Origin: Nanobdellota archaeon
Lineage (GTDB): Archaea > Nanobdellota > Nanobdellia > Pacearchaeales > GW2011-AR1
Assembly (NCBI GenBank): GCA_018898425.1
Contig: JAHIHG010000066.1
Coordinates: 1 to 23,690 of the forward strand
Length of the DNA: 23,690 nt
Direction of reading: 5' to 3'
This document shows, piece after piece, positions 13,545 through 18,538 of the stretch. The notes under the pieces are model-generated. The model did not search any database, had not been told where the DNA came from, and worked only from the letters and a program-made list of their open reading frames with translations. How positions within the stretch are numbered: the stretch's first letter is position 1; each line of letters opens with the position of its first letter. Position numbers and translations under genes: made by a program.

Positions 13545-14756
13545 TTAGGTATAATTTAAAGAATCTTCAATTATTTTTTTTGCCTGTTCAATTATACCTT
13601 TAGTGATTGCTAATTTTATCTCCCTCATTCTTCCACCTCTTCCTTTTGAAATAACTTTTACATTAATTATTCCAAGCATATCAAACTCTTGAATAATATC
13701 ACTTATTCTTCTTTGTGTTAAAATTTCTGATTTATTTTTAAGACATAATTCTTGATAATTATTATAAACATCTCCTGTAAAAATAGGCTCATTTTTTTGA
13801 TTTTCATTTAATTTTATTATAGAATGTAAAACAAGTTGAAATTGTTTAGGCTCTGATTTAATAATATCTAAAATTTTATCTCTTTCTAATTTACTATTAG
13901 CCTCATCTATATGCCTTACATAAATTTTTTTAGAAGAATCTCTTTCAGCTAATTCTCCTGCAACCCTTAGTAAATCCAGGGCTCTTCTTGCATCACCATG
14001 CTCCCTTGCAGCAAAAGCAGCACATTTAGCAATAACCCCTTCTTGAACAACATTTTCCTTAAAAACCTCATCAGACCTTTTTTTTAAAATTTCCTGTAAT
14101 TGTAAGGCATTATAAGGTGGAAAAACTATTTCTTCTTCTGAAAGTGAGCTTCTAACTCTTGGATCAATATTTTCTAAAAAAGTTAAATCATTACTTATTC
14201 CAACAATACAAATCTGAGTTTTAGAAAGTTCAGAATTTAATCTAGTTAAATTATATAAAAAATCATTAGAAATTTTCTTAACAGTCTGGTCTATTTCATC
14301 AAAAATTAAAACAATTAACTGCTTTTCAGAATCTATAATTTCAATAAATTTGCTATAAACTGCTTGAGTAGGCAAACCAGTAGAAGGAACCTCTCCACCT
14401 AATTTTTTAATAAGTTCTGCTAAAATCCTATATTCAGTATCAGAAATTTTTTTTAATTTACAGTTTAAATATTTTATTTTTAATTTAAAATCATTATTTT
14501 CATTAACCCTTTTTAATAATTTATCCCTAACATATTTTATTGAAAGTGTTTTACCAGTACCTGTTTTTCCATAAAGAAACAAATTACTAGATTTTTCACC
14601 TCTTAACACAGGAGCAAGTATTGAAGCAATTTGTTTAATTTGTTCACTTCTATGAGGAATATCCTCTGGTTGATAATTATTTTGTAAAAGAGATTTATTT
14701 TTAAAAATCAAATTTTTATCAAAAGATTCAAATATATTGTCTAATTCTGTTCCCAT
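13545..14756 (-). CDS. cdc6: Orc1/Cdc6 replication initiator (AAA+ with C-terminal winged helix)
   Basis: - Walker A: LYGKTGTGKT.
- Walker B: LIVLIFDEID.
- Sensor and winged-helix region: GDARRALDLLR, and ...RGGRMREIKL at the C-terminus.
- It lies immediately next to the ORB-containing intergenic region. Confidence 0.93.
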   Translation of the reverse strand: MGTELDNIFESFDKNLIFKNKSLLQNNYQPEDIPHRSEQIKQIASILAPVLRGEKSSNLFLYGKTGTGKTLSIKYVRDKLLKRVNENNDFKLKIKYLNCKLKKISDTEYRILAELIKKLGGEVPSTGLPTQAVYSKFIEIIDSEKQLIVLIFDEIDQTVKKISNDFLYNLTRLNSELSKTQICIVGISNDLTFLENIDPRVRSSLSEEEIVFPPYNALQLQEILKKRSDEVFKENVVQEGVIAKCAAFAAREHGDARRALDLLRVAGELAERDSSKKIYVRHIDEANSKLERDKILDIIKSEPKQFQLVLHSIIKLNENQKNEPIFTGDVYNNYQELCLKNKSEILTQRRISDIIQEFDMLGIINVKVISKGRGGRMREIKLAITKGIIEQAKKIIEDSLNYT

Positions 14757-14801
14757 TTTTAATTTAAATAAAATAAATTAAAAAATTTATACAATAAGAA
14801 T

Positions 14802-14827
14802 ACACACACAGTGATTTCCTATGGAAA
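14802..14827 (+). repeat. ORB-like box 1
   Basis: acacacacagtgATTTCCTATGGAAa. Confidence 0.65.
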
Positions 14828-14901
14828 ATCTTTTAAATTTAAATCATTCGTCAATAAAAAATTAAGTTATTATATAAAGTCTTATAACTACTAAAAAAGA
14901 A

Positions 14902-14924
14902 AAACACCTAAATTTCCTATGGAA
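14902..14924 (+). repeat. ORB-like box 2
   Basis: aaacacctaaATTTCCTATGGAA. Confidence 0.6.
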
Positions 14925-15000
14925 TATGTTTTTTTATTTTTAAAATTCCTAATCCCTTAATACTTACTTTATTATCTTCTTTTGATTTTATACTCTTTTT

Positions 15001-15125
15001 TCTTTTTTATTATTATTATTATAATTATTATATACTATATTTTTTTATAATAATAATAATAATAATAATAAACTATATACTATATAATATATATAAATAT
15101 AAATTAAATATAAATTAAAAATTTC
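15001..15125. repeat. A/T-only duplex-unwinding-element candidate with inverted trinucleotide tracts
   Basis: (tta)n at about 15007-15030 and the complementary (taa)n at about 15046-15072, followed by tatata-type low complexity. Almost no G/C across the segment. Confidence 0.6.
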
Positions 15126-15145
15126 AAAAAATCCTTTTTAAATAC

Positions 15146-15174
15146 TTCCATACGAAATCAAAGGGTGAGTGTGT
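15146..15174 (-). repeat. ORB-like box 3 (inverted)
   Basis: The plus strand reads ttccatacgaaatcaaagggtgagtgtgt. The reverse complement is acacactcaccctttgATTTCGTATGGAA, facing boxes 1 and 2 across the A/T element. Confidence 0.6.
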
Positions 15175-16593: not shown

Positions 16594-17316
16594 ATGGAAA
16601 ATATAAAAAAAGCTTTTAGTAAAGTAAAAGAAGATATGATCTCTTTGAATTATGAAATTAATTCTTTAAAAAAGAATATTATAGAAAACAGAGCAAAAAT
16701 GATAGAAATGTGTGAAATTCTTAAGCAATTAAATGAAAAAATAATTCTTTTATCTGATAAAAAAGAAACTAAAGAGGACTTAGACACTTCGACAGACAGA
16801 CAGATAATTCAGACAGACAGACAAATACTTTCGACACATAATGAGCTTTTTAACCCTTTAAAACACCAAAATATACCTATTTCCATTGGAAATGAAGGGG
16901 CTTCGACAGACAGACAGACAGACACTTCGACAGACAGACAGACACAAAATATGCCTAAAAATGAAGAAAAAAGCTATATAAGAGATGCTTTAGATATTAT
17001 AAATTCCCTAGATGATTTAAAAAAAGAAATGAGGTTTAAATTTAAAAGACTTACAGAGCAGGAATTTTTAGTTTTTTCAACAATTTATCAATTAGAAGAA
17101 ACTATCAATAAGGAAGATTCTTTGAATTACAGGGTTCTTTCTGAAAAACTTAATTTAACTGAAAGTTCTATTAGAGATTATGTCGGAAGATTAATAAAAA
17201 AAGGTATTCCCGTCGAGAAAAAAAAATTAAATAATAAAAACATAATTCTTTTTTTATCAAAAGATTTTAAAAAAATGATTTCTTTACCTACTCTTTTACA
17301 ATTAAGAGATTTATAA
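16594..17316 (+). CDS. coiled-coil / STDRQ-repeat / C-terminal winged-helix DNA-binding protein
   Basis: - N-terminal heptad-like segment: FSKVKEDMISLNYEINSLKKNI.
- Central (S)TDRQ repeats, encoded by (GACA)n DNA.
- C-terminal wHTH: LTEQEFLVFSTIYQLEE...LSEKLNLTESSIRDYVGRLIKKGIPV. Confidence 0.6.
   Translation: MENIKKAFSKVKEDMISLNYEINSLKKNIIENRAKMIEMCEILKQLNEKIILLSDKKETKEDLDTSTDRQIIQTDRQILSTHNELFNPLKHQNIPISIGNEGASTDRQTDTSTDRQTQNMPKNEEKSYIRDALDIINSLDDLKKEMRFKFKRLTEQEFLVFSTIYQLEETINKEDSLNYRVLSEKLNLTESSIRDYVGRLIKKGIPVEKKKLNNKNIILFLSKDFKKMISLPTLLQLRDL
16786..16944 (+). repeat. tetranucleotide (GACA)n tracts inside the CDS
   Basis: gaca x3.5 at 16791-16804, agac x3 at 16811-16822, gaca x5 at 16905-16924 and gaca x4 at 16929-16944. 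Three of these are preceded by cttc. Confidence 0.85.
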
Positions 17317-17381: not shown

Positions 17382-17408
17382 AAATATTTTATCGACGATA
17401 AAATATTT
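17382..17408. promoter_or_regulatory. 27-nt near-perfect palindrome (13-nt arms, 1-nt centre) between convergent wHTH genes
   Basis: aaatattttatcg-a-cgataaaatattt. Related TCGACGATAAAA-type copies occur at 17957-17970, 18174-18190 (inverted) and 18377-18388 (partial). Confidence 0.5.
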
Positions 17409-17524: not shown

Positions 17525-18136
17525 TTAGTCTTTTTTAGTCTTTTTTCTTAACTTAACACTCACTTTTGGCTTTTTAAGCATCTGTTCCTTTACACTTTCA
17601 GGTATAAAAATCCTTTTTTTACCATTTTTCTCTATTTTCTCTTGAATTAAACCCTCACTTTTCTGTTTTATACTATTTATTTGGCCTCTTATAGTAGATC
17701 TCTCTTTCCCCAGTACAGCAGCTAAATCATCATAGCTAAGCTTCATATCACTGTTTAACAAGATCCATAAAATAGCTCGTTCAGTTATAGAAAATTGCTC
17801 TAATTTTGGTGTTTGGACAGCTGTTTGGACAGCTGTTTGGACAGCATAAACAGCTGTTTGTTTATTAAACAGCTGTTTAGGTGTTTTAAACACGCTGTTG
17901 GGTTTTAAGTCATTCATAATTGAAAATATATTTTTTAATCCTTCTATCTCATTTTGTATCGACGATAAAACCTCTTTTATCTCTTCTACTTCTTTTTTTT
18001 GCATATTTTTTTCAGAATCAAGGTGTTTAATCCACCCGCTTACAGCAGTTATATCTTTTTTTACAGATTCAAAACTTGTTTTTGTATCGTCTTTTAACTT
18101 TTCAATCTCTTTTTTTCTTTTAAACAAACCAAACAT
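17525..18136 (-). CDS. coiled-coil / TAVQ-repeat / C-terminal winged-helix DNA-binding protein (same architecture as 16594..17316)
   Basis: - N-terminal coiled coil: FESVKKDITAVSGWIKHLDSEK...EIEGLKNI.
- Central repeat: TAVYAVQTAVQTAVQT.
- C-terminal wHTH: ITERAILWILLNSDMKLSYDDLAAVLGKERSTIRGQINSIKQKSEGLI. Confidence 0.6.
   Translation of the reverse strand: MFGLFKRKKEIEKLKDDTKTSFESVKKDITAVSGWIKHLDSEKNMQKKEVEEIKEVLSSIQNEIEGLKNIFSIMNDLKPNSVFKTPKQLFNKQTAVYAVQTAVQTAVQTPKLEQFSITERAILWILLNSDMKLSYDDLAAVLGKERSTIRGQINSIKQKSEGLIQEKIEKNGKKRIFIPESVKEQMLKKPKVSVKLRKKTKKD
17811..17875. repeat. 12-nt tandem repeat (gtttggacagct x3) plus further AAACAGCTGTTT palindromes inside the CDS
   Basis: CAGCTG occurs at 17818, 17830, 17851 and 17870. 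A degenerate cacgctgtt lies at 17891. Confidence 0.85.
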
Positions 18137-18240
18137 GATTAATAATAAATAAAAGCACTTTAAAAACTTTTTGTTTTTCGTCGATAAAAATTGATTTTGT
18201 AATTTTTTAAAAAAATAAAAAAGATGTGTCGAAGACCCTG

Positions 18241-18256
18241 GATTTCATATGGAAAA
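18241..18256 (+). repeat. ORB-like box in the accessory-region intergenic space
   Basis: GATTTCATATGGAAAA, compared with oriC box 1 GATTTCCTATGGAAAA: 15 of 16 identical by eye. Confidence 0.55.
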
Positions 18257-18258
18257 AC

Positions 18259-18413
18259 CAGCTGTTTAAACAAAAAAATACTGACAAACAGCCTGTTTAA
18301 ACAGCCTTAAACAGCTGCCCAAGAGATAAATAATTACAAACAGCTGTTTAAAGTTTAATAGAAATTTAATTTTCTCCCTCGATAAAACTAACAAACAGCC
18401 TGTTTAAACAGCT
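18259..18413. repeat. iteron field: five copies of AAACAGC(C)TG(TTTAAAC)
   Basis: - cagctgtttaaaca at 18259-18272
- acaaacagcctgtttaaacagcc at 18284-18306
- aaacagctg at 18309-18317
- acaaacagctgtttaaag at 18336-18353
- acaaacagcctgtttaaacagct at 18391-18413. Confidence 0.8.
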
Positions 18414-18443: not shown

Positions 18444-18465
18444 AACTAAGTTAACCTAAGTGCAC
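18444..18465 (+). repeat. 22-nt direct repeat R1
   Basis: aactaagttaacctaagtgcac. Confidence 0.85.
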
Positions 18466-18538
18466 GAACTACACTATAAAATAAAATTTATTAAAAAATT
18501 CACAAAAATTTATAAATTTACATTCTTATAGCACTTTA

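Follow-up and report, generated by a model that had tools for sequence, protein, structure and literature searches.

The window analysed here, a stretch of 23,690 nucleotides, carries an ORB-type element (box 4) in the promoter region of the core gene wH203 and a closely related box (box 5) inside the coding sequence of its convergent neighbour, wH240. Sequence comparison across related genera, together with the analogy of known archaeal systems, gives in our judgement an even chance that box 4, a second copy of the wH240 ORB restricted to certain lineages, acts as an auxiliary Orc1/Cdc6 site upstream of wH203, in its promoter region. The genome scanned is a 969,031-bp draft in 112 contigs (G000), of which the window is contig C27 (28.7% GC); the names carried by homologues assign it to Candidatus Pacearchaeota.

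Table 1. Coordinates of the origin, of the ORB-type boxes and of the genes and repeats around them in the window.
Feature	Position	Strand	Remarks
orc1/cdc6, the genome's only detected copy	13545..14756	-	PolD genes follow
oriC ORB-a, adjoining the cdc6 start	14801..14828	-	28.7 bits
oriC ORB-b	14899..14926	-	26.0 bits
oriC DUE	14960..15140	.	sole 80-nt windows at least 90% AT between 14.6 and 19 kb
oriC ORB-c, opposite in orientation to ORB-a/-b, G-string facing away from the DUE	15144..15171	+	33.0 bits (all-ORB matrix), 35.9 bits (ORB-c-only matrix)
wH240, core gene carrying box 5	16594..17316	+	coiled coil, disordered linker, MarR-like wHTH
Box 5, ORB plus CTTCGACAGACAGAC repeats in the linker-coding part of wH240	16879..16945	+	TTCCATTGGAAAT-GAA-GGGG
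wH203, single-copy core gene with box 4 in its promoter region	17525..18136	-	coiled coil, linker, MarR-like wHTH
wH203-linker iterons (A/G)ACAGCTGT(T/C)	17810..17890	.	encode TAVQ repeats
Putative wH203 core promoter	18155..18193	-	BRE/TATA-like AAAAGTTTTTAAAG preceded by conserved TATCGACGAAAA; alignment blocks, inferred function
Box 4, ORB-type full-length element	18225..18256	-	minus-strand reading TTTTCCATATGAAAT-CCA-GGGT-CTTCGACACA
Parts of box 4	dyad 18242-18254; G-string 18236-18239; CTTCGACAC flank 18226-18234		
Intergenic iteron field AAACAG(G)CTGTTT	18257..18410	.	upstream of wH203 in every genus examined
Local repeat motifs CTTCGACAGACAGAC, AAACAGCTGTTT and TATCGACGATAAAA			candidate sites for wH240/wH203/wH90

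Origin recognition boxes at oriC and upstream of wH203

Upstream of cdc6, which holds the one Cdc6_C match in the genome, three ORB-like boxes at 14813 (+), 14911 (+) and 15146 (-) surround a near-pure A/T stretch. Read on the minus strand, the oriC boxes consist of TTCCATAGGAAAT, a gap of 3-4 nt and a G-rich tail (GTGTGTG, GGTGT or GGGTGAG). The 18 other family loci that reach cdc6 follow a similar origin plan, with boxes of the ORB-a and ORB-b types on the cdc6 side and the inverted ORB-c, where detected, beyond the A/T stretch, from which the G-strings point away.

The initial annotation of the window had drawn attention to GATTTCATATGGAAAA at 18241-18256 as a near-copy of oriC box 1 that abuts an iteron. 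We confirmed its coordinates, its single mismatch to GATTTCCTATGGAAAA (14813-14828) and its immediate contact with the first iteron, CCAGCTGTTTAAAC. The statement that its core fits all three oriC boxes holds for those at 14813 (+) and 15146 (-) and fails for the one at 14911 (+), which begins AATTTCC, the first base being A in place of G. The 969-kb genome contains no more than three exact matches to GATTTCNTATGGAA: two at oriC and, within the flagged sequence, GATTTCATATGGAA (18241-18254). About 0.08 exact matches per genome are expected by chance from base composition (28.7% GC, both strands). Allowing up to two mismatches, the window contains seven matches against 1.78 expected, a number reached in none of 100 shuffles. 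The match was indeed unlikely to have arisen by chance, as had been supposed, and the proposed genome scan confined the 13-base exact core to oriC and box 4 in G000.

Box 4 extends well beyond this core. On the minus strand it reads TTCCATATGAAAT, three bases (CCA), GGGT and then CTTCGACAC. The TTCCATATGAAAT portion carries both TTCC and GAA, matching oriC TTCCATAGGAAAT and TTCCATACGAAAT; in Pyrococcus these two motifs are essential for Cdc6 binding (PMC1904270). Its dyad, TTCCA-N3-GAAAT, is of the ORB-c type, which in the oriC of a related genome (G074) reads TTCCATATGAAACCAAGGGGTC. The G-string begins 4 nt past GAAAT, in the same register as the GGGG of box 5 and one base off that of oriC ORB-c, and it is GGGG in other carriers of box 4. 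Judged by these elements, box 4 is a genuine full-length origin recognition box with a TTCC-N5-GAAAT dyad and a G-string, and makes a credible Orc1/Cdc6 site, the adjacent iterons being probably bound by a neighbouring wHTH protein.

Position weight matrices (PWMs) were built solely from the oriC ORBs of other genera and run over ~1.9 million genome positions. With the all-ORB matrix (19 oriC ORBs), the first three ranks went to ORB-c, ORB-a and ORB-b of the G000 oriC (scores in Table 1) and the fourth to box 5 (24.0 bits), with background starting at 15.6 bits; box 4 came eighth (13.9 bits), in a tier that it shares with three or four hits from other parts of the genome, presumably due to chance. 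With the ORB-c-only matrix (10 ORB-c sites, all from other genera), oriC ORB-c again scored highly (Table 1), box 5 ranked third (19.3 bits) and box 4 seventh (15.0 bits), level with the genuine ORB-b (14.9 bits) and several background hits. Box 5 stands directly after the oriC ORBs in both genome-wide scans. Taken alone, the core score of box 4 is at the top of the background tier; the box is convincing because of where it lies, because it has a G-string and the CTTCGACAC flank, and because orthologous copies exist in other genera.

These properties bear on whether the core motif came to lie 3.4 kb from oriC purely by chance, which is barely credible. A scan of 41 genomes did return nine exact core matches away from cdc6, some of them in coding sequence (one at an MCM start codon), and box 4 shares its PWM rank of 7-8 with background hits. 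Only ~0.002 matches are expected in the window (~0.08 per genome), however, and box 4 has in addition a G-string, the locus-specific CTTCGACAC flank and orthologues at the same position in 10 other genera. It is this orthologous conservation that refutes chance.

Core matches in other genomes were also inspected. At L017 5570-5583 (G018:C21), from a related genus, the exact core with a CCCT G-string lies across the start codon of the MCM helicase gene. The MCM gene of G000 (contig C93) has no comparable box at its start and only a weak in-gene PWM hit. The idea that Orc1 governs a regulon of replication genes was abandoned. At L019 4733-4746 (G017:C8), the exact core with a CCCT-type G-string sits among small unannotated ORFs 1-2 kb from resolvase fragments and may be a mobile-element-borne ORB in another genus. 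Two core matches at L021 4809 and 9244 (G012:C9) have identical 22-nt left and 10-nt right flanks, i.e. they belong to a repeated sequence.

An ORB within wH240 and the history of its copy

The closest relative of box 4 proved to be the intragenic ORB of wH240 and not, as first annotated, oriC box 1. A repeat search returned a 29-nt inverted match (83%) between 16880-16908 in box 5 and 18227-18255 in box 4. Of the four genomic copies of the 10-mer CTTCGACA[CG]A, the wH240 linker contains three and box 4 the remaining one; box 4 is therefore a copy of the box 5 composite and not of oriC box 1.

The ORB part of box 5 (16881-16909) reads TTCCATTGGAAAT-GAA-GGGG-CTTCGACAG, which encodes ISIGNEGASTDRQ in wH240. 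In the AlphaFold model, residues 59-126 of wH240 have pLDDT below 50 and form a disordered linker between a long N-terminal helix and the C-terminal MarR-like wHTH. We counted codons in 79 genera with the strict box 5 peptide motif, taking the same genes elsewhere as background. The codons TCC (10% of Ser codons in the background), GGA (45%), GGG (20%) and ACA (62%) were each used in 79/79 genera, GAC made up 71/71 of the Asp codons at its position (26%) and CAG was found in 69/74 (25%). The two spacer codons, at the dyad centre and between GAAAT and GGGG, vary freely. This constraint holds across wH240 proteins that are ~28-63% identical to the G000 protein. Because synonymous codons are fixed in 79/79 genera, selection acts on the DNA of box 5, and the pattern of constraint, to judge from the codons, is that of an ORB (dyad, spacer, G-string) and not of a peptide. 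The (GACA)n tract within 16879-16945 also shows conservation of its DNA.

Conservation of box 5 reaches well beyond the family. The motif TTCCA(T/C)AGGAAAT-N3-GGGGTT recurs in seven further families of the order, in proteins 28-40% identical, which places box 5 in all eight families sampled; wH240 itself was found in 76/81 genomes of the order. No usable covariation of the oriC ORBs with boxes 4 and 5 was found across genera and families, since the dyad is identical throughout the order and leaves none to exploit. An RNA hairpin as the cause of the constraint on box 5 was rejected, since box 4 precedes the predicted promoter and no predicted transcript would include it.

In some genera the wH240 linker holds two ORBs, namely at L056 6159/6217 (G053), L059 3399/3468 (G122), L064 5703/5817 (G158) and L074 3838/3881 (G123). 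The pairs of G053 and G122 are inverted with G-strings facing inward around an (ACAG)n tract, a geometry that they share with boxes 5 and 4.

The distribution of box 4 is much narrower. We surveyed the region upstream of wH203 in 97 genera and found the composite of ORB and (C/T)T(T/C)CGA(C/T)A in 11. The initial annotation had regarded absence from homologous elements as counting against the box, and this applies in part, to the 86 of the 97 genera that lack it. Where present, box 4 always lies 103-130 bp before the wH203 ATG, in one orientation and adjoining an AAACAGC iteron. In the alignment of carriers, whose wH203 proteins are 64-75% identical to that of G000, the blocks TTTTTCCA, GAAA, GG and CTTCGACA hardly vary, and no alignment is possible for the spacer on the promoter side. 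One further genus (L051) has lost the ORB part and retains TTCGACAC alone at the position of box 4. Two near-identical strains (L077 and L079) have kept box 4 and share 99-99.9% identity over the region, too close to be informative.

In the wH203 protein tree the carriers all fall inside one 74-member part, and well-supported branches force at least four changes; with 51/94 inner branches open, the tree dates the gains and losses of box 4 only imprecisely. The simplest history from these data would be a single gain, when the box 5 composite was duplicated, with several losses thereafter, and the distribution fits an ancestral site repeatedly lost. The role of box 4 is dispensable, as it is missing in 86/97 genera with at least four gains or losses, and yet the alignment of carriers indicates that the box is under selection where present.

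The same losses suit a view of box 4 as a functionless, slowly decaying relic of a wH240 linker segment that was duplicated upstream of wH203, which we regard as improbable. Besides the absence of box 4 from most genera through several independent changes, a relic would account for the reading of box 4 in the wH240 frame, SI*NPGSST against SIGNEGAST, and for the TGAAAT and GGGT of the G000 copy in place of the GGAAAT and GGGG found in many other copies. In the 11 carriers, nevertheless, there is hardly any variation in the columns of the ORB and of CTTCGACA, next to a spacer that cannot be aligned, and position and orientation are fixed. Nor is the dyad a sign of decay, since TTCCA-N3-GAAAT is the normal dyad of an oriC ORB-c.

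A second reading concerns the protein that binds. Boxes 4 and 5 have GGGG-CTTCGACA as G-string and flank, whereas oriC ORB-a and ORB-b have GGTGT or GTGTG. A different protein could read the composite. In that case the ORB-like dyad, the GGGG and CTTCGACA would together be recognised by a local wHTH protein (wH240, wH90 or wH203) instead of Orc1/Cdc6, likeness to the oriC ORBs would reflect ancestry or convergence, and the wH203 promoter would simply have box 4 as an ordinary operator. We think this rather unlikely, although several observations favour it: CTTCGACA[CG]A and (ACAG)3 are unique to the locus, the same flank accompanies every copy of boxes 4 and 5, TTCGACAC persists at L051 where the ORB part is gone, and wH240 and wH203 each combine a MarR-like wHTH with a potentially dimerising coiled-coil region. 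On the other hand, the constrained positions of box 5 are exactly the ORB dyad and the G-string, with free spacers, and box 5 comes next after the oriC ORBs with matrices trained on the oriC ORBs of other genera. Moreover, the flank of box 5 is TTCCAACA and not TTCGACA in 52/79 genera, and is therefore less conserved than the ORB part.

The conserved neighbourhood of oriC

The initial annotation placed the box in an accessory region, a placement that the comparative data overturn: throughout the family and the order, wH203, wH240, wH90 and the iteron field belong to the core, occur once and stay linked to oriC. Matches to wH203 were found in 175/201 family genomes and in 39/41 high-quality ones, nearly always as a single match. 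The order DP1, cdc6, ORBs, PRC, o141, wH90, wH240 and convergent wH203 recurs without exception in the 18 larger loci of the family that extend to cdc6, and the same order from cdc6 to wH203 is seen in G010, whose cdc6 is 80% identical. Other families of the order have an insertion of a few kb between o141 and wH90. Variable content (tm94, other small genes and a serine recombinase) starts only past the iterons, at ~18440, and in many genera a GTGCACTTAGG-type repeat marks the boundary between conserved and variable sequence. By this synteny box 4 is within the conserved neighbourhood of oriC and not in a mobile element, and 16.4-18.4 kb should not be labelled a mobile island in annotation.

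A GTGCACTTAGGTTA-type repeat occupies 18444-18470 of the window, directly beyond the iteron field and at the edge of the oriC-linked conserved block; it is found at equivalent places in L026, L028, L031, L033, L036, L037, L050 and L053.

The earlier proposal read the box as a second origin, or as a site that titrates the initiator, on an integrated element with its own iteron-binding wHTH proteins. The ORB-like box and iterons do have wHTH genes as neighbours, 1.7 kb further on there is a serine recombinase with a region of variable cassettes, and the cumulative GC skew has its minimum near 18.5-19.5 kb, a measure unable to separate two sites 3.4 kb apart. Against such an element stand the single-copy conservation of wH203, the cdc6 synteny in 18/18 loci and the order-wide occurrence of wH240. 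A second origin also finds no counterpart in the local architecture. The oriC DUE alone yielded 80-nt windows that are 90% AT or more in the stretch from 14.6 to 19 kb, no partner ORB in oriC geometry was found for box 4, and the Cdc6_C search found no second cdc6 in the genome, wH240 and wH203 having generic MarR-like wHTH folds. Boxes 5 and 4 are inverted with their G-strings inward, opposite to the outward G-strings of oriC in this family; in Sulfolobus, both inverted DUE-flanking ORBs are individually required (PMC12141716). As for titration, only two ORB-like boxes (4 and 5) outside oriC emerged from the genome-wide scans, and so few extra sites have no capacity to titrate the initiator. 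The comparative data thus largely refute the second-origin and titration proposals, and we hold them to be very improbable.

In every genus examined, the region upstream of wH203 carries an iteron field of the GTGTTTAAACAGGCTGTTT kind, together with a TATA-like AAAAGATTTTTAAAG block and a conserved TATCG(A/T)CGAAAA motif. The palindromic iteron AAACAG(C/G)TGT both occurs in the wH203 linker and fills the upstream intergenic region, an arrangement that resembles lambda O and its ori. Codons of the TAVQ repeats in the wH203 linker are constrained, with GCT or GGT but never GCA or GGA, and never GTA. In G000 the iteron, (ACAG)3 and GTTTAAACAG motifs occur exclusively, or for by far the most part, within C27:16.5-18.6 kb. 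A third motif, the partly palindromic TATCG(A/T)CGATAAAA, lies at 17388-17404, 17955-17970, 18176-18190 and 18378-18390; one copy is just upstream of the TATA-like block of wH203 and is conserved in most genera. As for the proteins that might bind these repeats, wH90 is a candidate binder of TATCG(A/T)CGATAAAA, a dimer of wH203 would match the palindrome of the iteron, and wH240 may be the protein that recognises the CTTCGACAGAC unit.

For both wH203 and wH240, predicted structures and fold searches returned a generic MarR-like wHTH behind a long helix and a disordered linker, with no link to Cdt1/WhiP, Rep or Orc wH domains. Profile searches of the two proteins against the PDB gave nothing specific, and a PHROGs search of the local genes nothing meaningful.

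A possible role for the boxes and comparison with known systems

Boxes 4 and 5 form part of a conserved, oriC-linked module of two convergent coiled-coil/wHTH genes, whose linker DNA and shared upstream region are packed with candidate sites (ORBs, CTTCGACAGAC units, AAACAGCTGTTT iterons and TATCGACGA motifs). By analogy with the dp1 gene of Pyrococcus, we infer that Orc1/Cdc6 may occupy box 5 in all genera and box 4 in some. On box 4, situated between the iteron field and the wH203 promoter, the single Orc1/Cdc6 of the cell would sit as a monomer ~70 bp upstream of the putative wH203 TATA box, flanked by wHTH proteins on their own sites. Bound there, it could modulate wH203 transcription, extend an Orc1 nucleoprotein domain around oriC, or both.

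The surrounding wH240/wH203 module is more interesting than box 4 itself. Tentatively, and with rather low confidence, we suggest that it is an undescribed origin-accessory module of Pacearchaeota, in which the DNA for disordered linkers holds the proteins' own binding sites together with the ORB of the initiator. Orc1 and both proteins would then co-assemble on boxes 5 and 4 and the iterons and so control initiation or origin segregation, with box 4 as the promoter-side anchor. To our knowledge, replication control in DPANN archaea (e.g. Pacearchaeota) is essentially unstudied, and these organisms have not yet been grown alone. What the window offers is a compact set of cis-elements by a single origin: three oriC ORBs, one order-wide intragenic ORB and one optional promoter ORB. 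If Orc1 binds the extra boxes, the coding-sequence ORBs of Thermococcales would be extended to a distant lineage and the initiator would be linked to two conserved regulators of unassigned function.

Compared with the oriC1-type ORBs of Sulfolobus, Aeropyrum and Pyrococcus, box 4 likewise has a TTCC/GAA dyad with a one-sided G-rich extension and likewise lies within a few kb of orc1/cdc6. Its sequence is close to that of the P. furiosus ORB1 oligonucleotide, whose reverse complement reads TTCCAGTGGAAATGAAAC...GGGGGG (PMC1904270). Unlike the oriC1-type boxes, box 4 is solitary and upstream of a promoter and does not belong to a DUE-flanking inverted pair; it also has an extra CTTCGACAC flank that the oriC ORBs lack.

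The nearest parallel to box 5 is in Pyrococcus, where the coding sequence of dp1 contains an ORB cluster to which Cdc6/Orc1 binds both in vivo and in vitro, a cluster that is conserved in Thermococcales and presumed to support initiation (Matsunaga et al. 2007; PMC1904270). Single full ORBs are bound well there, whereas a lone mini-ORB gives no stable Cdc6 binding in vivo (PMC1904270). In both cases the extra ORBs lie outside the core origin and within ~5 kb of cdc6, and box 5, like the dp1 sites, is in coding sequence and kept across an order; the Pyrococcus sites are bound by Cdc6 in ChIP and EMSA. The host gene here is instead a lineage-specific wHTH regulator on the opposite side of oriC, it holds a single full ORB (two in some genera) and not a cluster of mini-ORBs, and box 4 is intergenic.

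The placement of binding sites within linker-coding DNA recalls the O gene and ori-lambda of phage lambda, where iterons lie inside the coding sequence of the initiator itself. The repeats likewise fall in DNA for a flexible linker between two domains, here a linker of predicted disorder. In contrast to lambda, the setting is a cellular chromosome, one of the embedded sites is the box of the host initiator and not the protein's own, and the fold searches gave wH240 and wH203 no link to the wH domains of initiators.

Bacterial DnaA boxes in promoters and at datA are examples of initiator boxes that serve regulation or titration away from the origin. Among archaea, Orc1-2 of Sulfolobus acts as a transcription regulator (PMC9738581). 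Box 4 is likewise upstream of a promoter and could couple expression to the level or nucleotide state of the initiator; unlike datA, the locus has just one or two sites and lacks titration capacity, and unlike in Sulfolobus, a single Orc1 would serve both roles.

ORBs outside the core origin and within genes are thus already known from Thermococcales. New here are the DPANN host lineage, the lineage-specific wHTH host gene, synonymous codons fixed throughout an order, a partner gene that bears iterons in its own linker, and the optional promoter copy of the ORB. The fixed synonymous codons of box 5, in particular, provide a clean example of a coding region constrained by an overlapping DNA site.
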